Source: Nitrospirota bacterium (lineage in GTDB: Bacteria; Nitrospirota; Thermodesulfovibrionia; Thermodesulfovibrionales; Dissulfurispiraceae). Taken from it: 64,000 nt of DNA. Position 1 is the stretch's first letter. Every line of letters starts with the position of its first letter. The stretch lies in assembly GCA_963710375.1 (NCBI GenBank), contig CAVPZX010000003.1:288001-352000 (forward strand). The letters run 5' to 3'. The notes below the pieces were generated by a model. The model saw only the letters and a list, made by a program, of their open reading frames with translations, made no database searches and was not told where the DNA came from. This document shows, one piece after another, positions 40,919 through 50,567 of this stretch. A program made the position numbers and the translations under genes.

Positions 40919-42524
40919 ATGGGCATTGAGACGGAAAAAGGGAATGGCATAGTGCCCCATACGGAAGAAAGTCACCAGAGTACGACAGATCTTATCCTGG
41001 CAAGGCTGCAGGAATACCACGACTTCCCGGCTATGTCAAATACTGTTGATGTTATGAATCGGTTCAAGGCTTCCGAAGATGTCTCAGTTTCCGAATTTGC
41101 CAATATTATTTTGAAGGATTATGGTTTAACGTCAAAGATTTTGAAACTTGTAAACAGCGTCAGCTATGCTCAGTTCGGAGAGGTTACGACTATTTCTCGT
41201 GCAATAGTCCTCATTGGGTTTGAAAACATCAAGAATCTTGCTGTTACACTGATGCTTTTTGATTATTTCCAGAAAAACAGACTCAAATCCCGAGCATGTG
41301 GATACAAAGGTCAAATCCTTATACAGCGCAATCATGGCTCAGAAGGTCTCGCATGAGAAATCTTTAGACAATGAGGAAGAAGCGTTTATCTGTTCGCTTT
41401 TCCACACTTTCGGCAAAATGCTGGTGACCTTTGCCCTGCCGGAGAAAATAGAGGAAATAAAACTTCTCAGCAGTGAAAAAGGTATTTCAGAAAATGAGGC
41501 TGCACTCTCTGTCCTCGGCGAGCGTTATGAAGAGGTGGGCGTTGCAATGGCCAGGGACTGGCATTTTCCGACCATAATCATTAATAGCATGCACAAACTC
41601 CGCGGCATGGAAATTACTACCGGCGCCGACAAACTCGATAAACTCAATGTCGTTGCCTTCTTCTCCAATGAAGTCGCTAATATATTGTCGACAACTACTA
41701 ATAAATATGAGATGGATGAGAAAATCGGAAAACTCGCAAGAACGTTCAGGCCCCACCTGGGTGATCTGGACAGGAGGATGGACAGAATCATCAATGCGAG
41801 TCTTGATGACCTGAATGAGTTTTCAAGAATTTTTAATGTCAATCTTAGCGCGGTCCCTTTTACAAGGCAGTTGCTGGTATGGGCCGGTAAGCCGGAGCAG
41901 GCTGTGCAACCCAAAAACGAGCTGCTCTTCGCTGACTTTTCGACTGAAGAGCTTGAAACTATTGATATTATCCTTGATTCCGAAAAAAGAGACACCCCCG
42001 AAAGTATTTTCACGAAGGGCATTCAGGATATCAATAGTTCGATACTGAGCGATTTCAACATCAACGATGTCGTCAGGATTGTGCTGGAAACCATGTACAG
42101 GGGCATGCAATTGTCGGGGCAGGCAAAGGCCCTGTTCCTGGTAAAGGAGACCAAAGCGCCTATAATGAAGGTCAGATTCGGGTTCGGGAGCCGGGTTGAG
42201 GAACTGAAAAAATGGTTCGAAATTTCACTAGACGACCCCACCGACATCTTCAATATATCTATAGTCAAGGGGCATGACCTTGTAGTGAAGAACATCGAGT
42301 CTCCCGATATTAAAAAGTTGCTGCCCAAATGGTTCAGAAGCAAGGCATTTTCGAGGATCTTTTTTGTCATTTTGCCTATCATAGTTAATAAAAAGCCTTT
42401 GGGGATATTCTATATAGAGGGGGACAGGGAAGACTTTCAGAAAGTTTCCGCCGTGCATTTAAACTACCTGAAAATGTTGCGCGATCAGACGGTCGTGGCT
42501 ATCAGACAGAAACATTGGTACTAA
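40919..42524 (+). CDS. HDOD plus C-terminal GAF-like protein, copy 1 (+1 frameshift at 41281)
   Basis: DFPAMS, ILKDYGLTSKILKLVNS, TISRAIVLIG, EEAFICSL.H.FGK, W.FP. Colinear with 44817-46391 once the extra A is removed. Start at 40919 or the GTG at 40952. Confidence 0.85.
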
Positions 42525-43013
42525 ATGAAGATCCCCGAACCTAATATGACTTTTGTCTTTATTGCGAAGGAGGAGATACTCCGGAACATTGTCAACACCC
42601 ATGATTTTATCCTGGTCCAGGGCTGGAAAGGTACAGGAAAGACTGTTACCGCGCTTAAAGCCGTCGCCGGGATGGGAGATATATATTATTATAATGGGTC
42701 GGCAGAGGAAATACCGCAACATACCGGCCAACTGAACGTTGTGAAAAACTGCCAGGAGCTGCGCGCCATTCAGCCCGGGAAGCAGTGCATCATCTTCGAT
42801 AATCTGAACCATCTCGACAGTGAAGCGCGCAATATTTTAAAGGATATGATACTGGAAAGGATAAAAGACAGAAAAATACTTGTTATCACACAAGTGGTGC
42901 TCGATGCGCAGGACATCCTGGGGAATATGGATGTTGTTGTTCGCTTCAGGCAGAACACCGCGGAGATGCTGGATACGAAATTGTATAACCTAAATAGTTG
43001 TTGCCGTTTTTAA
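42525..43013 (+). CDS. Small P-loop NTPase, copy 1
   Basis: Walker A GWKGTGKT; Walker B-like CIIFDN; 162 aa. Confidence 0.8.
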   Translation: MKIPEPNMTFVFIAKEEILRNIVNTHDFILVQGWKGTGKTVTALKAVAGMGDIYYYNGSAEEIPQHTGQLNVVKNCQELRAIQPGKQCIIFDNLNHLDSEARNILKDMILERIKDRKILVITQVVLDAQDILGNMDVVVRFRQNTAEMLDTKLYNLNSCCRF

Positions 43014-43022
43014 AATTCGTGC

Positions 43023-43063
43023 ATCTGAGCGCCTGAATGCGCAAGTTATTTATTCGCGAGCCC
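43023..43063. mobile_element. Solo end of family A MITE
   Basis: atctgagcgcctgaatgcgcaagttatttattcgcgagccc matches 48714-48754. Confidence 0.85.
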
Positions 43064-43508
43064 TCAATTCCATGTATAGCTTTTTTTTCTCACATGCCCC
43101 TTTCCAGCCGCACCCGTTGCAGGATGATTCATACCATGCCCGAAAGATTGAGGGAAGCATATTCCGGATGTCCGTCCATCTGACAAACTGGCCGGATAAA
43201 AGTCCGAGCAGACGCAAGGCCAGACGGTCCATGGCCAGGATGTCATCCTCAACCTGGGCGCTGTGCATGCACCTGTTAAATTTCAAAGAAGGGCAGTATT
43301 TACAAATGGCATCGGCCCCGTTATGCACCTGAACTATGCCCTCTTCCGCGACACCAATAACGTTCCTCAAGTTTTCGACAAACGCGGCGTCATAGCCTTC
43401 GCCCGAGAAAAAATGAAGACAGATTAGGTGATGGCCCCTTAATGAGCAACTCTCAATCTTTTGGCTGTGGTTCTTCTTAAATGCGCTTTTCAGGCTAATC
43501 AATGACAT
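43050..43508 (-). CDS. DUF1284-family Cys/His-rich protein
   Basis: LRGHHLICL.FF.GEGY...FVEN, DAIC..CP, C..C.W...C. Confidence 0.8.
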   Translation of the reverse strand: MSLISLKSAFKKNHSQKIESCSLRGHHLICLHFFSGEGYDAAFVENLRNVIGVAEEGIVQVHNGADAICKYCPSLKFNRCMHSAQVEDDILAMDRLALRLLGLLSGQFVRWTDIRNMLPSIFRAWYESSCNGCGWKGACEKKKLYMELRARE

Positions 43509-43572
43509 TATTAATTATATAACATACCTAGTGCATATATAAACGGTTAGAGCATCTTCGGTAGCGGGTCAG

Positions 43573-43601
43573 TTGACAGAGCCCAATATATCTGTTAGTT
43601 T
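43573..43601 (+). promoter_or_regulatory. Sigma70-type promoter, copy 2 (leaderless arrangement)
   Basis: TTGACA-N17-TAGTTT with TGn extension; GTG start 5 nt after the -10 box, no SD. Confidence 0.7.
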
Positions 43602-43606
43602 AACTT

Positions 43607-44800
43607 GTGGACAAGTTGAAGGGAAGAGATATTATCGAAAAGATCAAGGCCGGCTATTCGCTGCCTTCTCTATCAGCCGTTGCACTCAGGCTCGTTGAAA
43701 TAGCATCCAACGAATATGTTTCCCTGAGTGAAATGGCGGACCTTATTGAGAAGGACCCCGGTCTTACGGTCCGTCTGGTCACTATTGCCAACAGCGCATT
43801 TTTCAGGTCTACGGATCCGGTCTCGACTGTGGAGCAATCTGTCATGAGAGTCGGCGTCAACCATTTAAGAATCATGGCTTTATCATTGTCACTGAGAGAT
43901 ACGTTCCCGATGGGCAAACTCGGTCCAATGGATTACGAGAAGTTCTGGCGTTCTTCGCTCTACCAGGCATTAATCGCGAAATCTTTTGCACAAAGGTTGC
44001 AGACATGCAGTCCTGAAGAGGCCTTTGTTGCCGGTCTTGTCCTGGAGATCGGGCTGCTGATATTTGTTGACACCTTCTTAAAGGGACATGTAATTGAAAA
44101 GAATCTGGACCTTCATCCTTTGGAGAAACTCCTGGAATGGGAGGCCATGCATTACAGGACCGATCACAGGGAGATCGGGGCTGCAGCGCTGAGTTATTGG
44201 AAGTTTCCTTCAGTTATTATAGAATGCCAGCATGTCCATAATATAGAATCCAGGGACGAACAGGTACCTCCTCTGGCCCTGATCTGTGAAATGGCGCGTG
44301 AATTCTCCGCGCTAATTTGTGAAGAATCGATGGAGTGGAGCCCGCTTTTCAGCAGGGCTGAAGCTATGTACGGCATTAATCAGGGTTTGCTCACAGATAT
44401 TCTTGTCGCCACATTTGATGAGGTCCAGGAGGTTGCCGATGGACTCAAGGTCAATATGAACAAGGAGAAAGATCTTATCGCTCTCATCGAAAAAGCGAAC
44501 CTTTCTCTGGGCGGTCTTTCGGAAAAGATGCTAAAGCTTCAGGAAACAGCATTAAAACATGGCTTGCCGTCTTTCGAAAGTCTGGGAGATCTCGAAGAAA
44601 AGTCAGCCGTAAGGGACACGTTGCAGGCAGTAGCGCATGAGATAAGGAACCCGCTTCTGGCGGTCAGCGGTTTTGCGAAGAAACTTTCGACAGCCCTCGA
44701 CCCTGCCTCTGACGGCTGGAAATATGTACAGGTAATTGTCGAGGAGTCCAGGAGGCTCGAAAGCGCTCTGGCAAACATGACCTGCTCTAACAAGTGCTGA
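43607..44800 (+). CDS. HDOD plus HisKA (DHp) protein lacking an HATPase domain
   Basis: LPSLS, DPGLTVRL..IANSAFF, FWRSS, EEAFVAGL..EIG, W.FP; H-box AVAHEIRNPL...GF, E..RLE, then stop. Confidence 0.85.
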   Translation: MDKLKGRDIIEKIKAGYSLPSLSAVALRLVEIASNEYVSLSEMADLIEKDPGLTVRLVTIANSAFFRSTDPVSTVEQSVMRVGVNHLRIMALSLSLRDTFPMGKLGPMDYEKFWRSSLYQALIAKSFAQRLQTCSPEEAFVAGLVLEIGLLIFVDTFLKGHVIEKNLDLHPLEKLLEWEAMHYRTDHREIGAAALSYWKFPSVIIECQHVHNIESRDEQVPPLALICEMAREFSALICEESMEWSPLFSRAEAMYGINQGLLTDILVATFDEVQEVADGLKVNMNKEKDLIALIEKANLSLGGLSEKMLKLQETALKHGLPSFESLGDLEEKSAVRDTLQAVAHEIRNPLLAVSGFAKKLSTALDPASDGWKYVQVIVEESRRLESALANMTCSNKC

Positions 44801-44816
44801 AAAAGGGGATGGCATA

Positions 44817-46391
44817 GTGTCACAAACGCAAGAAAATGGCCAGAGCACAAAAGATCTGATCCTGGCAAGGCTGCAGGAAAACAGTGATTTTCCTGCCATG
44901 TCTAATACCATGAACATGATTAATCAGTTGAAGGCTGCCGAAGACGCCTCTGTTACTGAATTAGCCAATATTGTTTTGAGGGATTATGCATTGACGTCGA
45001 AGATCATAAAAGTTGTAAACAGCGTCAGTTATTCCCAGTTCGGGGAAGTCACTACTATTTCCCGTGCAATCAATCTGCTTGGGTTTGAAAACATCAAGAA
45101 TCTTTGCCTCACTTTAATGCTTTTTGGTCATTTCCGGGAGAACAGCTCAAATGTCGAACATGTAGATACTATGATCAAATCTTTTTACAGCGGATTCCTG
45201 GCCCAGAAGATATGCGGCGAGGTATCCTTTGAGAACAAGGAAGAGGCGTTTATCTGTTCGCTGCTCCACAATTTCGGCAAGATGCTGATATCCTTTGCCT
45301 TGCCTGAAACAATAAAGGAGGTAAAATCTGTAAGCCATGAAAGAGGTATTTCAGAAGATGCGGCTGCCCTTTCGGTCCTCGGCGGGAGATATGAGGAGAT
45401 AGGCATGGCAATAGCCAAGGGATGGAATTTCCCGACCAAGATCATTCGCAGCATGCACAAACTCAGCAGAACGGAAGTCAAAGACTCGTCCGATGAGATC
45501 GATCAGCTCATTAGCATTGCTTCCCTTTCCAATGAAATATCGAACATACTATCGAGCAGTTCGGAAAAGAAGGAGATGGATGAGAGGCTTGGCAAACTTG
45601 CCGACATGTTCAAGACTACTTTCACCGGGTTGAACCGCAAGGTGATAACCGGTGTTATTAATGAAAGTCTTGAAGACCTGAATCAGTTTTCGGCTATTTT
45701 TCATATCAACATGGATGAAGTTCCCTTTAACTGGCAGTTGATGACCTGGTCGGACAAGGTGGTCGAACCGTCAGCAACGGTTGCAGGAGTTCTACACGCG
45801 GACTTTACATCTGAACAACTAAAGTCGATTGATGTTATTGCCGGATCTGAAAAAGAAGATACCCCGGATAGCGTATTCTCAAAGGGCTTGCACGATGTCA
45901 CTTGTTCATTATTGAGCAGTTTCTCGCTGAACGATATAATAAGGATTGTGCTGGAAACTATATACAGAGGCATGCAGCTGTCAGGGGAGGGGAAAACCCT
46001 CTTTTTGGTCAAGGATACAGAGGCCCCTGTCATGAGAATAAGATTCGGGTTAGGGAGCGGGATTGAGGGATTGAAGAGGTGGTTTAATGTTACGTTGGAT
46101 GATTCCGGCGATATTTTTAATAAGGCGATAGTTAAGCAGCATGATCTCGTTATCAAGAGCGTCGAGCCTCCAGCTATTAAAAAATTGTTGCCCGAATGGT
46201 TCAAACATAGGGCATCTGCCGGAATCTTTTTTATTGTTTTACCTATTATAATAAATAATAAACCGATCGGTATGTTTTATGTAGAAGGGAATAAGAAAGA
46301 ATTTCTGAAAGTCTCAGCTGAACATTTAAACTACCTGAAAATGTTGCGCGATCAGACGGTCGTTGCGATCAAACAGAAACGTTGGAGCTAA
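44817..46391 (+). CDS. HDOD plus C-terminal GAF-like protein, copy 2
   Basis: Intact paralog of 40919-42524; ends LPIIINNKPIGMFYVEG...LKMLRDQTVVAIKQ. Confidence 0.88.
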   Translation: MSQTQENGQSTKDLILARLQENSDFPAMSNTMNMINQLKAAEDASVTELANIVLRDYALTSKIIKVVNSVSYSQFGEVTTISRAINLLGFENIKNLCLTLMLFGHFRENSSNVEHVDTMIKSFYSGFLAQKICGEVSFENKEEAFICSLLHNFGKMLISFALPETIKEVKSVSHERGISEDAAALSVLGGRYEEIGMAIAKGWNFPTKIIRSMHKLSRTEVKDSSDEIDQLISIASLSNEISNILSSSSEKKEMDERLGKLADMFKTTFTGLNRKVITGVINESLEDLNQFSAIFHINMDEVPFNWQLMTWSDKVVEPSATVAGVLHADFTSEQLKSIDVIAGSEKEDTPDSVFSKGLHDVTCSLLSSFSLNDIIRIVLETIYRGMQLSGEGKTLFLVKDTEAPVMRIRFGLGSGIEGLKRWFNVTLDDSGDIFNKAIVKQHDLVIKSVEPPAIKKLLPEWFKHRASAGIFFIVLPIIINNKPIGMFYVEGNKKEFLKVSAEHLNYLKMLRDQTVVAIKQKRWS

Positions 46392-46392
46392 A

Positions 46393-46869
46393 ATGGAATG
46401 CCCGGCCCCTCAAATGGCTTTTATTGCGAAGGAAGAGATACTCCGGAACATCGTCAGTACACATGCTGTCATACTGATCGAAGGCTGGAAAGGTACAGGG
46501 AAGACTATTACCGCGCTTAAAGCCGTCAACGGCAAGGGAGATATCTACTATTACAACGGTACGGCGGGGGAAATACCGCAGTGTTCCATCCAACCGAACA
46601 TTGTGAAAAACTGTCAGGAACTGCGCGCCATTCCGCCCGGAAAACAGTGCATCATCTTTGATGATCTGAACCGTCTGGACAGCGAAGCACGCAGTATTTT
46701 AAAGGATATGGTGCTGGAAAGGAAGAAAGACAGGAAAATAGTCGTTATCACGCGGGTGGTTCTCGATGCACAGGACATTCTGGAAAATATGGATGTTGTT
46801 GTTCGCTTCAAGCAGAATACCGCAGAGATGCTGCATACGAAACTGTATGAGCTGGACAGCTTTCAGTAA
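46393..46869 (+). CDS. Small P-loop NTPase, copy 2
   Basis: GWKGTGKT, CIIFDD; close paralog of 42525-43013. Confidence 0.8.
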   Translation: MECPAPQMAFIAKEEILRNIVSTHAVILIEGWKGTGKTITALKAVNGKGDIYYYNGTAGEIPQCSIQPNIVKNCQELRAIPPGKQCIIFDDLNRLDSEARSILKDMVLERKKDRKIVVITRVVLDAQDILENMDVVVRFKQNTAEMLHTKLYELDSFQ

Positions 46870-46874
46870 CAATG

Positions 46875-47093
46875 CAATTCAGACAGTAGATGATTCTCTT
46901 TCGCTACTCTCCGTTTTGACAGTTCTATGACTCGTTTCGCTACAGTCGCAAAATTCCCTTCGGTCAGTTTCGCTCCTGACTGCCACCCCAAAAGTCTGTG
47001 ACTTTTGGGGACCCCGGACTTTTACGCTCACTCGCCAAGAACTGTTTCCAAAACTCCGCTAATGCTTCAGAGATTCATCTACTGTCTGAATTG
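46875..47093. mobile_element. MITE-like element, family B (copy 3)
   Basis: TIRs caattcagacagtagatga / tcatctactgtctgaattg; interior related to 26805-26994, plus an extra ccccaaaagtc-tgt-gacttttgggg hairpin. Confidence 0.85.
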
Positions 47094-47149
47094 AACTTCA
47101 GTAACGATGTCCTCTTCCTCTGCCTCAATACAGTATAATAAAATAAATT

Positions 47150-48448
47150 ATGCGATATTATCTTGCAAACAATTTTGTGCTCAAACAGCTCGAGACTCCG
47201 GCCCTTTATGATATCAAGGGAGATGAATTGTATGAGCTTGATGAACAGGCCTTTGAATTTCTAAAAAAATGCTCGGAGTCCGAAGGCTGCAGCGGCCATA
47301 GTGCGGACAAAGAATTTCTCGCGTATTGCATTTCAGAAGGGATCTTGTCTGACACGCCTGTTAAGGTCCGCGTCCCGCACGCTGCATTTCGACCTGCTAT
47401 TTCAGCTTTCCCCTCGCTGCGTTATCTCGATCTCCAAATCACCGACCGGTGCAATCTGAGATGCAAGCACTGCTATATCGATAATGCTGAACAAAACGAA
47501 CTTTCACCAGGTTTAATAAGGGAGATCCTGGATGAATTTGAGCTGATGCAGGGTGTGCGCTTATTGATCACGGGAGGAGAGCCAATAGCTCATCGTGATT
47601 TTGACTCTGTTAATGCGCTGCTTCCCGGATATGGATTCAGAAAGATTTTATTTACTAACGGCCTTCTCCTGGACAAAAAGGTGGTGCGAACGCTCAATGT
47701 CGATGAAATACAGTTCAGTGTAGACGGAATGGAGCATGGACATAACGCGCTTAGAGGGGATGGCACCTACAGAAAAGTGATGAAGTCGATCGAGGGTGCG
47801 CAGGCTTTGGGCATAGCGGTTTCTGTGGCAAGCATGGTACACGGCGAGAATGTCGGAGAATTTCCGGCAATGGAAGCGCTTTTTAAAGACATGGGAGTTA
47901 AGGACTGGACTGTTGACGTGCCCTGCATTGCCGGTCACCTTAAACACAATGCGCTCTTTCATGTGCTGCCCGCCGAAGCGGGGCAATACCTGAATTATGG
48001 TTTCGGAGGCGGCCTGCATGGCGGCGGCGACGGGTATGCTTGCGGGCTGCACCTTTTGTCGGTGCTTGCGAACGGTGCAGTTTCCAAATGCGCCTTTTAT
48101 GCCCATTCTCCGCTGGGCAATGTAAGTGAGGGCTTGCGAAAGTGCTGGACACGGCTGAAACCGGTGAAATTGGAAACATTGCAGTGCGCAGGGGTCCACT
48201 GCCAGGTTATCGAAGAGTGCAGGGGGGGGTGCAGATTCCGGGCATCCGTTACCCCGGGTGATTGCTTACCAGCTGCTCTATCTCAGGACATACAAAGTGA
48301 AGCGGCGCAAAACAGGAGAGATATTTACAAATGTTTTGCCTATGGTATAATTAATCCATCGGGGCTTGAAGCCCTGCACGAAGGCCCCTCAAAAGAGTCT
48401 GTTATTTTTCCGGGCTGGAATGAACTCCCGAGAAGAGGAGGTGTTTGA
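47150..48448 (+). CDS. Radical SAM/SPASM protein with an N-terminal RRE/PqqD-like extension
   Basis: CNLRCKHC, ITGGEP; SPASM region CG...V..NG.V..C...GNV...C-X4-C-X5-CRGGC...C; ~85-aa N-terminal domain LYDIKGDELYELDEQA.EFL..C. Confidence 0.9.
   Translation: MRYYLANNFVLKQLETPALYDIKGDELYELDEQAFEFLKKCSESEGCSGHSADKEFLAYCISEGILSDTPVKVRVPHAAFRPAISAFPSLRYLDLQITDRCNLRCKHCYIDNAEQNELSPGLIREILDEFELMQGVRLLITGGEPIAHRDFDSVNALLPGYGFRKILFTNGLLLDKKVVRTLNVDEIQFSVDGMEHGHNALRGDGTYRKVMKSIEGAQALGIAVSVASMVHGENVGEFPAMEALFKDMGVKDWTVDVPCIAGHLKHNALFHVLPAEAGQYLNYGFGGGLHGGGDGYACGLHLLSVLANGAVSKCAFYAHSPLGNVSEGLRKCWTRLKPVKLETLQCAGVHCQVIEECRGGCRFRASVTPGDCLPAALSQDIQSEAAQNRRDIYKCFAYGIINPSGLEALHEGPSKESVIFPGWNELPRRGGV
48324..48351 (+). 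promoter_or_regulatory. Possible internal promoter for the downstream peptide
   Basis: TTTACA-N16-TATAAT with TGn extension near the 3' end of the radical SAM gene. Confidence 0.45.
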
Positions 48449-48449
48449 T

Positions 48450-48512
48450 ATGGTGATCAAGAAGATCGCAAAAAAAACAGCAACCACGTGTAAGTGCAAG
48501 GGCTCCTGTTAA
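48450..48512 (+). CDS. 20-aa Cys-rich peptide MVIKKIAKKTATTCKCKGSC, putative radical SAM-modified precursor
   Basis: Strong SD GAGGAGGTG a few nt upstream; starts 1 nt after the SPASM gene stop; below the ORF-track size cutoff. Confidence 0.75.
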   Translation: MVIKKIAKKTATTCKCKGSC

Positions 48513-48574
48513 AGGCTTAAAAGAGTTTATACGAGTGACCCTGAGGGTTATCGGTCGGGGGGCGGGTGTATTTA

Positions 48575-48754
48575 GGGCTCGCGAATAAATAACTTGCACA
48601 TTGATGCATCTCAGATTCAGGCCATCTTTGTCCGATCCTCGGTCGCAAAATTCTCAACGTAGCTATGCTACGCCTGCGGTTTTGCTCAGTCGGATCAGCC
48701 AAATCTGACACAAATCTGAGCGCCTGAATGCACAAGTAATTTATTCGCGAGCCC
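48575..48754 (-). mobile_element. MITE-like element, family A (copy 2)
   Basis: Inverted near-identical copy of 14519-14698; flanked by TTA and TCA. Confidence 0.9.
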
Positions 48755-48818
48755 TCAGCCCCCCATTTATTTTGTCAAATCCTTTATATTTGTCATATAC
48801 CTGTGCGATAATAAAAAA

Positions 48819-50567
48819 ATGTACAAGATGAAACTATATTTTGCGGTGCTTGCAGTATCGGTCCTCTGCATCTTATCATGCGCTCCCCTGCAACAGCAGG
48901 CGAGCTCGGTTAAAGAGCCTCCTGCAGAAAAATTGCAGCCTGGTGCTGAGAAAGGATATTTGGAATACATGCTCGGCTATGAGGCTGAAATTGACGGCAA
49001 TTGGGAGGCTGCCCTGGAACATTATAGCGCAGCCTACAAACTCGACCCTTCGGCAGTCTACTTAAAGACGCAGATAGGCTCCATGATGGTGAAGCTCGGA
49101 AGATATGCGGAGGCAACCGCGAAGCTGGAGGAGGTAGTGAAGGCAAGCCCCGATTATGTTCCAGCCCTTATGCTGCTGGGTGACTTGTATAACTCTCAGA
49201 AGAAGATCGATGAAGCTATAGATATTTATGAAAAGGTGATAAAAATATCTCCGGACAAAAACGATGCGGCTCTGTTCCTGGGAGTCCTTTACCTGTCTAA
49301 AGGAGAGCCCAAAAAGGCTGAACTCATTCTTGATGAAATCATTAAAAGAGACGCTGATAATGTCATGGCACTATACTATCTCGGCACGATCAGTCTTGAG
49401 AGGAAGGATTTTAAAAAATCTGATACGTTGTTTAAAAAAGTAATAGAGCTTCGGCCGACCTTTGACGCAGCTTATGTGAGCCTTGGCCTTTCCAGTGAAA
49501 TAAGGAACGATACGAAGTCTGCCGAAGAATACTACAATAAAGCGCTCGAAGTTAATCCCAATAATCCTTTCGCAAGCGAGAGGCTTACTCAGCTTTACGT
49601 GACCGAGAAATCATATGATAAGGCTATTAAGGAACTCGATCATCTGCTGGAACAGGCTCCAACAAATGTGGATATTCACCAACAGCTCGGTCTCCTCTAT
49701 CTTCAGGATAAACAATATGAGCAGGCCCTCTCCGAGTTCAGGATTGTCCTTGCGGCCAGGCCGCTTGATATAACTCTCCGATATTATGTTGTGGTGACAC
49801 TCGATGAAATGAACAAGCTCGATGAGGCAATTGTCGAACTGAAGAAAATTCTCGATATTGATCCCAAGAACTTCAATGCGTTCATGACGCTCGGAGCTAT
49901 TTATTCAAAGCAGAACAATCACCCCGAGGCGATAAAGATCTACGAGGAAGTTCTCAGTTTTGAAAAGAATAAGCCTGAAGTCTATGTTTACCTCGGCGCT
50001 ACCTATGTGGAGATGAAAGAATATGCGAAGGCGGAGAGAATTTTTCAGGATGCCCTCAAGCTCTTTCCCGATAACGCTGACTTGCTTTTCAATATGGCCA
50101 TACTCTTTGAAAAAACCGGAAGGTTCGATGATATGGTGACAGCGCTGAAGCGTACGATCGAGCTGGACCCTAAGAACGCGGAGGCATTGAATTACCTGGG
50201 TTACAGTTATGCCGATAAGGGAATAAAGCTTAAAGAGGCATTGTCGCTTGTACAGCGGGCCATTGAGCTGAAACCTGACAGCGGCTATATCGTGGACAGC
50301 CTTGGATGGGTATATTTCAAGATGGGACGGCTGGAAGAGGCACTGCAGACTCTGAAGAAGGCTGTAAATCTTGTGAAGGATGATCCTGTGCTGAATGAGC
50401 ATGTTGGCGATGTCTATGCGGCAATGGGCAAGTATGCTGATGCGCTCAATGCCTGGAATACGTCGCTCCGGTTCGAGTCCAAAGAGGAGGGCTTAAAAGA
50501 GCGCGTGGAGGCGAAAATAAGAAAATTGCAAAACAAAAAAAATCAATCGGAGAAACCAAAAGAATGA
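48819..50567 (+). CDS. TPR-repeat lipoprotein
   Basis: Lipobox ILS-C; many TPRs; ALNYLGYSYAD and DSLGWVYFK motifs typical of the TPR gene found upstream of ispE. Confidence 0.9.
   Translation: MYKMKLYFAVLAVSVLCILSCAPLQQQASSVKEPPAEKLQPGAEKGYLEYMLGYEAEIDGNWEAALEHYSAAYKLDPSAVYLKTQIGSMMVKLGRYAEATAKLEEVVKASPDYVPALMLLGDLYNSQKKIDEAIDIYEKVIKISPDKNDAALFLGVLYLSKGEPKKAELILDEIIKRDADNVMALYYLGTISLERKDFKKSDTLFKKVIELRPTFDAAYVSLGLSSEIRNDTKSAEEYYNKALEVNPNNPFASERLTQLYVTEKSYDKAIKELDHLLEQAPTNVDIHQQLGLLYLQDKQYEQALSEFRIVLAARPLDITLRYYVVVTLDEMNKLDEAIVELKKILDIDPKNFNAFMTLGAIYSKQNNHPEAIKIYEEVLSFEKNKPEVYVYLGATYVEMKEYAKAERIFQDALKLFPDNADLLFNMAILFEKTGRFDDMVTALKRTIELDPKNAEALNYLGYSYADKGIKLKEALSLVQRAIELKPDSGYIVDSLGWVYFKMGRLEEALQTLKKAVNLVKDDPVLNEHVGDVYAAMGKYADALNAWNTSLRFESKEEGLKERVEAKIRKLQNKKNQSEKPKE

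Follow-up and report, generated by a model that had tools for sequence, protein, structure and literature searches.

A candidate RRE-dependent radical SAM peptide system with a 20-codon precursor in Nitrospirota, and its sisters in metal-export loci

Introduction

A radical SAM/SPASM gene in a genome of the Nitrospirota family Dissulfurispiraceae raises the question of whether the enzyme has its own substrate peptide, encoded by a gene too short to have been listed, and what such a pair would make. The gene lies in a stretch of 64,000 nucleotides (contig CAVPZX010000003.1, assembly GCA_963710375.1; hereafter the window), for which an initial annotation, made from the letters and their open reading frames, had proposed a minimal RiPP system of an RRE-bearing enzyme and a hidden cysteine peptide. 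Here, we follow the enzyme and the peptide across the phylum, identify a third component, and weigh the chemistry and the function that the system could have.

Results

A 20-codon gene directly behind the maturase gene

The features of the locus are collected in Table 1. A good Shine-Dalgarno sequence and an unlisted 20-residue cysteine peptide had been noticed directly after the SPASM gene, and both are confirmed by the coordinates and by the relatives. The peptide ATG lies one base past the enzyme stop, and the program-made list of reading frames holds the peptide solely as the tail of a 48-aa frame opening with TTG; a 20-codon gene is invisible to length-limited gene calling. The peptide has no NCBIfam match and no signal peptide, and no second copy occurs among 5,549 small ORFs of this genome, which carries the type with lysine at position 17 (Lys type) alone, a pattern for other residues at this position yielding no sister here.

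Table 1. Features of the maturase-peptide locus, in positions of the window
Feature	Position	Strand	Basis or remark
Radical SAM/SPASM maturase, 432 aa	47150..48448	+	Radical_SAM match, SPASM model, structure comparison
RRE domain, residues 1-72	47150..47365	+	fold of the isolated domain
CxxxCxxC (C101, C105, C108), SAM-cleaving 4Fe-4S cluster	47450..47473	+	invariant in 54/54 diverse homologs
SPASM domain, seven Cys	48041..48334	+	predicted AuxI C298/C314/C361; predicted AuxII C346/C351/C357/C395
Predicted sigma-70 promoter, extended -10	48324..48351	+	TTTACA-16-TG-TATAAT, 11/12; within enzyme codons Y-G-I-I
Degenerate leader hairpin, loop TTGAA	48360..48376	+	loop of relatives A(U/A/C)GAA; strict motif unmet here
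Shine-Dalgarno GAGGAGGTG	48435..48443	+	within the last enzyme codons; conserved in the peptide family
Precursor peptide MVIKKIAKKTATTCKCKGSC, 20 aa (ATG at 48450, stop at 48512)	48450..48512	+	basic leader-like half, Cys core, Lys-17 type
Intrinsic terminator (G-run/C-run plus T tail)	48557..48773	+	split by a 182-bp miniature inverted-repeat element, 48574-48755

The peptide is a real gene rather than a chance reading frame, since it recurs just 3′ of the enzyme in 36 of 41 loci that were fetched through the enzyme alone, a set that includes this window and at least one duplicate pair. The downstream scan of enzyme homologs that the initial annotation had suggested therefore did recover a conserved short cysteine peptide. 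Among the five loci without it downstream, three have the peptide elsewhere in the genome and one ends 149 nt past the enzyme. Conversely, a metagenome scan with the C-terminal motif alone returned 120 loci, 109 of them complete ORFs of 19-20 codons with a start codon and a Shine-Dalgarno sequence at a fixed distance, and the enzyme ended at most 450 nt upstream in 45 of the 61 motif-found loci with sufficient upstream DNA. A control with the reversed pattern gave no match in 301 genomes. Three matches fell in viral contigs, and the two inspected lie on the opposite strand of other ORFs, as chance matches might.

The family follows the consensus MxI(K/R)KxxKKxxTCKCKxSC-stop and is essentially fixed in length, 155 of 162 distinct leaders encoding 20 residues and the other 7 encoding 19. 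I3, K/R5, K/R8 and T13 are nearly invariant in these leaders, positions 14-17, 19 and 20 being set by the search pattern in this count. Across residues 2-13, which are free of the pattern, variation falls mostly on the third codon position (codon-position entropy 0.79/0.77/1.57), with 383 synonymous against 268 non-synonymous differences between nearest neighbours. The core holds three cysteines and neither an aromatic nor an acidic residue; aromatic residues are absent from the window peptide and from the common residues at any position of the 155 Lys-type peptides.

The enzyme belongs to a separate clade of RRE-bearing SPASM proteins

The assignment as a dedicated radical SAM/SPASM enzyme is upheld by the CxxxCxxC core, by a score of 30 bits on the SPASM model TIGR04085 (cut-off 27) and by a precursor that tracks the enzyme. 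The last ~30 residues of the enzyme are not conserved and read through across the peptide leader. Each of the seven SPASM cysteines is present in 52-54 of the 54 homologs, and a candidate eighth ligand, C259, in 26 of 54. Judged from the alignment, H290 (45/54) or H301 (50/54) could fill the fourth AuxI site. The number and order of the cysteines are those of the CteB ligands (cf. the accessible text of PMC10177961); according to the parts of PMC10177961 and PMC6231123 that were available, CteB, PapB and Tte1186 have three plus four cysteines, and the substrate sulfur binds the open iron of AuxI.

The N-terminal extension had been suspected to be an RRE, and its fold supports this, all matches to RRE domains being below Z 8 and some unrelated winged-helix domains also reaching 6-6.6. 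Modelled alone (pLDDT 89.5), residues 1-72 match TigE best (Z 7.7, rmsd 2.5, 70 aligned) and NGO1945/3DEE next (Z 7.2), with further RRE-domain matches to MibB, TbiB1, lasso B1, MccB, NisB, PqqD, SuiB and CteB; peptide-modifying proteins supply most of the top 21 rows, at Z 5-7.7 over about 65-70 of the 72 residues. An RRE need not bind the leader, as the available part of PMC6231123 indicates for SuiB. The whole model aligns with SuiB (Z 21.8, rmsd 5.1, 342 aligned) and SkfB (Z 20.1, rmsd 5.4, 318 aligned), and the nearest solved structures are the RRE-bearing peptide maturases SkfB, SuiB and CteB, with the RRE inside the alignment.

Comparison with curated maturase models, including the SCIFF and GeoRSP families named by the initial annotation, gave no match: the best score was 82.7 bits against cut-offs of 180-725 among the 25 listed of 65 families, the SCIFF maturase model lying outside those 25. 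The GeoRSP model TIGR04303 gave 59.3 against 400 bits, and the window has no adjacent second SPASM or PqqD genes. The family is discrete, with 228 representatives below 1e-30, and a quick tree places its high-scoring members on one supported side with three low-scoring rows inside; on this sequence evidence, the enzyme is in a separate clade that is assigned to no named family. Close homologs are labelled Nitrospirota or Dissulfurispiraceae in their sources, and others are named for Archaeoglobus sulfaticallidus, Methanoperedens, ANME-2, Methanosarcinales and Promethearchaeota; Dissulfurispira thermophila and A. sulfaticallidus are cultured carriers.

Enzyme, peptide and a seven-cysteine protein occur together

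Among 301 genomes spread evenly over the phylum, in which kin are not independent, 129 have the enzyme and 125 the peptide motif, 124 having both and 171 neither. The enzyme occurs without the motif in five genomes, of which two have a match to the type with histidine at position 17 (His type), and the peptide without the enzyme in one (1 of 172 enzyme-less genomes). Presence is family-wide in some groups (21/23, 11/11, 53-56/64) and nil in others (0/50, 0/28, 0/24). Several families have the peptide gene at a distance from the enzyme, with unrelated genes around it and its sequence kept; the link between the two holds even where the genes lie far apart.

The proposed minimal two-gene pair is not supported as stated, because a third, cysteine-rich protein co-occurs with the pair and, in six homologs, forms one chain with the enzyme. 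Of the 301 genomes, 121 carry this protein of ~110 aa with seven invariant cysteines, and 118 of those are among the 129 with the enzyme; all three parts are present in 115 of the 132 genomes that have any part. In the six fusions the cysteine protein stands in front of the RRE (E 2e-24 to 6e-13; 395 proteins scanned), and the five of them placed on the quick tree take several separate positions. The system thus has three parts, the enzyme, the peptide and the cysteine protein. The last received no name from Pfam, NCBIfam or Atlas, and a complex prediction with the enzyme scored 0.00, which gives no verdict.

The gene of the cysteine protein is often divergent just upstream of the enzyme, or stands elsewhere behind cutA, which encodes a divalent-ion tolerance protein; in the closest families (L195-L202, L211 and, in this genome, G000:C2 about 781,400-782,080), it often directly follows cutA, near purF/hisD. 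The copy in this genome, on another contig at about G000:C2:781,763-782,078, has a one-base frame break. The gene is most likely intact, because the extra base is missing from the short-read contigs of four of four runs (from two studies, one run possibly being the source), so the frameshift was set aside as an assembly error.

His-type sisters lie in metal-export clusters

A CKCHQSC peptide was found at 2 of 30 copper-ATPase loci. Across the 301 genomes, a pattern for residues other than lysine at position 17 matched 53 times in 44 genomes, often by chance; the narrower CKCHxSC-stop gave 25 matches in 24 genomes of 10 families, and all 24 have the enzyme. The 30 regions fetched, picked by motif and spanning 31 of the 53 matches, contain 25 ORF-like peptides (23 His, 2 Tyr), two one-base frame breaks and three chance matches. 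In L305 and L320, His-type genes with leader and Shine-Dalgarno sequence intact have a one-base break before the core, from assembly error or decay.

A heavy-metal P-type ATPase lies within 4.2 kb at 18 of the 25 sister loci, on the same strand at 16, three of the ATPase matches being just 38-40% identical to the query, and an ATPase or a YHS/TRASH protein is present at 21 of 25. Within 2.4 kb, ATPase or YHS genes occur at 18 of 25 sister loci versus 1 of 42 Lys-type loci, a comparison in which two of the 25 were first found via the ATPase search and related genomes are not independent. Other neighbours of the sisters are Met-rich exported proteins, MerR and ArsR regulators, a multicopper oxidase and an outer-membrane efflux protein. 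At L308, L318-L320, L322 and similar loci, recurrent neighbours of the His-type peptides are a YHS and FAD-oxidoreductase fusion and Met-rich exported proteins that belong to no Pfam family. No peptide was found at this genome's own copper ATPase locus, and a copper role appears weaker for the Lys type of this window.

Neighbours of the Lys-type genes

Lys-type genes stand among varied housekeeping or redox genes, for example a TPR-ispE-prs run. The lack of an adjacent protease or transporter, read from the window, extends to the family, since none is conserved across 116 loci, where the neighbour clusters include no conserved protease, transporter/exporter or receptor.

Several further neighbours recur. 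SOD and nitroreductase genes do so, as does a rubrerythrin cluster, which is present at 26 of the 116 loci, mostly on the opposite strand; a nitroreductase/SOD/rubrerythrin-like cluster occurs at L182, L068, L048, L061, L102 and L115, co-oriented with the peptide in L182 and L068. These neighbours may reflect lineage synteny and are a weak lead. An unnamed protein of ~92 aa (…DKIxEMYPEI…DCMNxIKCxYLG…), with no Pfam match, adjoins the peptide at 17 of the 116 loci (L035-L037, L050, L051, L058, L066, L068, L073, L081, L083, L088-L090, L103, L113, L114). In a CKCKASC subgroup (L055, L063, L078, L095, L111), an ATP-grasp-like gene follows the peptide on the same strand and could encode a tailoring ligase. 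Another radical SAM gene, unrelated to that of the maturase (22-26% identity), stands 1-2 kb 3′ of the peptide at L048, L061 and L115. In the window itself, 40919-46869 holds two similar HDOD-GAF copies with a short P-loop ATPase gene behind each; the first HDOD copy is split across two frames at about 41259-41356.

The peptide gene has a predicted promoter, leader and terminator of its own

The initial annotation had suspected a promoter inside the enzyme gene. The predicted site at 48324-48351 is the best of 8 in the region, where 4.5 are expected by chance, and the comparative test is stronger than this single-site score: the last enzyme codons contain a TG-N-TATAAT-type box in 54 of 75 enzymes that have the peptide downstream versus 0 of 6 that lack it there. 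Both agree with the suspected promoter. One subgroup has TTGACA at the box position instead, and detached peptide genes often retain the box.

Between the promoter and the start codon, many relatives, fewer than half of the leaders, form two or three hairpins with A(U/A/C)GAA loops, the last one over the Shine-Dalgarno sequence. Of the occurrences of such a loop, 47 of 63 at the distal position and 43 of 70 at the proximal one stand on a stem of at least 4 bp, versus 265 of 13,446 genome-wide. In the 36 two-loop leaders left after 4 near-duplicates were dropped from 40 before the covariation count, 96.9% of cells pair, with compensatory changes at all 4 distal pairs, and the hairpin score was reached by none of 500 shuffles. 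The tandem motif occurs once per genome, at the peptide gene, in five of five genomes. A scan of the 301 genomes with a loose single-hairpin pattern was uninformative, since the control matched about as often. Rfam matched nothing over 46800-48900. At L175-L177, L047, L148 and L194, detached genes for 19-aa peptides have three tandem AUGAA-loop hairpins at about -58, -39 and -19 relative to the start codon.

The arrangement resembles the CsrA operators of flagellin mRNAs, in which two or three short hairpins stand about 20 nt apart with the last over the ribosome-binding site, whereas the loop here is A(U/A/C)GAA and not GGA. CsrA was considered as the binder and is not supported: the flagellin leaders of the same genomes use GGA, and the hairpins also occur where CsrA was not found.

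The interrupted terminator of the window is intact in L001, and 81 of 157 peptide genes have a terminator-like site behind them, versus 1% of shuffles. The interrupting 182-bp element is palindromic and has 48 long genome matches, most counted in both orientations; on the other flank of the locus, a 219-bp miniature inverted-repeat element (46875-47093, 25-bp arms) has 5 long genome matches.

Discussion

Based on these findings, we propose an RRE-dependent, radical SAM, RiPP-like system of three parts, whose cysteine-modified product would bind soft metals, copper above all, and stay in the cell, a reading to which we give an even chance. The RRE fold of the enzyme would dock the basic first half of the peptide, the leader adding a beta-strand, and, as in CteB, PapB and Tte1186, one substrate cysteine would coordinate the open iron of an AuxI cluster with three cysteines. 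The 5′-deoxyadenosyl radical could then abstract a hydrogen from a nearby residue, and the product would carry one or more sulfur-to-carbon (thioether) rings, with some thiols left free. The cysteine protein probably carries a metal or an Fe-S cluster and serves the enzyme. The Lys-17 type would be the housekeeping copy with its own promoter, and the His-17 types extra copies in copper-export clusters.

Cysteine chemistry is the likely target, since the core has three cysteines and no aromatic or acidic residue. Of the carbon-carbon cross-links that the initial annotation had also mentioned, aromatic ones are unlikely, the Lys-type peptide being devoid of aromatic residues, whereas the substrates of the PqqE/MftC/SuiB-type cross-linkers have one in the core. 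Characterised enzymes of this architecture with cysteine substrates mostly make thioethers; by this analogy, thioether rings are the single likeliest product, with thiooxazoles close behind. The product likely stays in the cytoplasm, given that there is no signal peptide, exporter or dedicated protease, and it is likely a small copper-binding compound, as its sister peptides lie in metal-export gene clusters. Because thioether formation would consume metal-binding thiols, thiooxazoles suit a chelator better.

Given the copper context and the C-K-C-K/H motif, the same system could instead convert its cysteines to 5-thiooxazoles, as SbtM does, and be an oxygen-independent counterpart of the copper-binding bufferins and captophorins. 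SbtM (TIGR04082) offers the analogy of a radical SAM/SPASM enzyme whose target is cysteine in a ribosomal peptide, from which it makes a thiooxazole (accessible portions of PMC11002830 and PMC13638132). In the text seen of PMC12668002, captophorin precursors have Lys-Cys or Cys-Lys and are modified at Lys-Cys, and in that of PMC11626156, copper binding by bufferins requires the thiooxazoles. The sisters' place in metal-export clusters fits, and the MNIO family (PF05114, DUF692), which makes bufferins and captophorins, was not found in any of the five genomes tested. However, the SbtM model gives the enzyme 49.7 bits where 350 are required, both the architecture and the nearest structures point to cross-linking maturases, and the likeness of the motifs is of two residues only. 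The substrate of SbtM is 53 aa long with a selenocysteine signal (same portions of PMC11002830 and PMC13638132), unlike the 20-aa peptide of the window, which has no selenocysteine codon; the family patterns required cysteine codons, which made TGA variants undetectable. Bufferins and captophorins share with this system the Lys-Cys/Cys-Lys motifs, an RRE-type partner and the copper-stress link (here for the His/Tyr sisters, and 1 of 42 for the Lys type), but have longer precursors that are exported through a signal peptide, which the 20-aa peptide lacks. On balance, we hold thiooxazoles to be possible but doubtful.

A modified signalling or housekeeping peptide of the SCIFF kind, with no metal role, would account for the single copy and near-universal presence within whole families (21/23, 11/11, 53/64), and for an own promoter, terminator and regulatory leader among housekeeping genes, the copper context of the sisters then being a side use or shared ancestry. 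Against it, no exporter, protease or receptor is conserved around the 116 loci, the core hardly varies from family to family, in contrast to strain-specific signals, and the sisters occupy metal-export clusters in about ten families; we think it improbable. Very unlikely, in our judgement, is an unmodified peptide, a bare thiol peptide or a regulator, with the enzyme acting elsewhere, for example on the cysteine protein. That protein does accompany the enzyme nearly as closely, in 118 of the 129 enzyme genomes, and forms fusions with it, yet the enzyme has an RRE fold, the peptide has a fixed length of 20 residues with a conserved leader-like half, and it is found in just 1 of 172 genomes without an enzyme match.

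Among known systems, the proposed cysteine-modifying three-part system resembles the ranthipeptide/SCIFF systems CteB-CteA, Tte1186 and PapB in an RRE with a radical SAM and a seven-cysteine SPASM domain, a predicted three-cysteine AuxI, a cysteine-rich precursor, and a compact locus among housekeeping genes. It differs from them in a precursor of 20 aa with three cysteines and no Asp/Glu acceptors, where SCIFF precursors are defined by about 45 residues and six cysteines, and in a third cysteine protein, a separate enzyme clade and metal-export-linked paralogs. SkfB (sactipeptide) and SuiB (streptide) are the nearest solved sequences and folds, yet are only 13-21% identical; SkfB has a Twitch domain, and no transporter or protease genes are found here, while SuiB has fully ligated clusters and forms a Lys-Trp link, unlike a core without an aromatic residue.

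A literature search, which covered few subscription journals and no supplements, such that mining tables could list the enzymes, returned no description of the enzyme-peptide family, and the peptide motif occurred in no paper searched. The RiPP family is well defined and unnamed. Within the phylum it is near-universal in several families, its enzyme has homologs in archaea, and its need for an uncharacterised third protein sets it apart from the usual RRE-radical SAM systems. The setting of the sisters in metal-export loci provides a concrete, testable function, which most orphan radical SAM peptides lack, and the substrate peptide is cheap to synthesise. In its fullest form, the idea is that anaerobic bacteria, and probably archaea, make an oxygen-independent, copper-chelating thiooxazole mini-peptide with a radical SAM enzyme and a new cysteine metalloprotein, with a new tandem-hairpin translational switch controlling the housekeeping copy and with His copies in copper-export islands; we advance this only tentatively, as a doubtful possibility. 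If the product does chelate copper, it would reveal how sulfate-reducing and methane-cycling anaerobes could handle copper without oxygen-dependent peptide chemistry.
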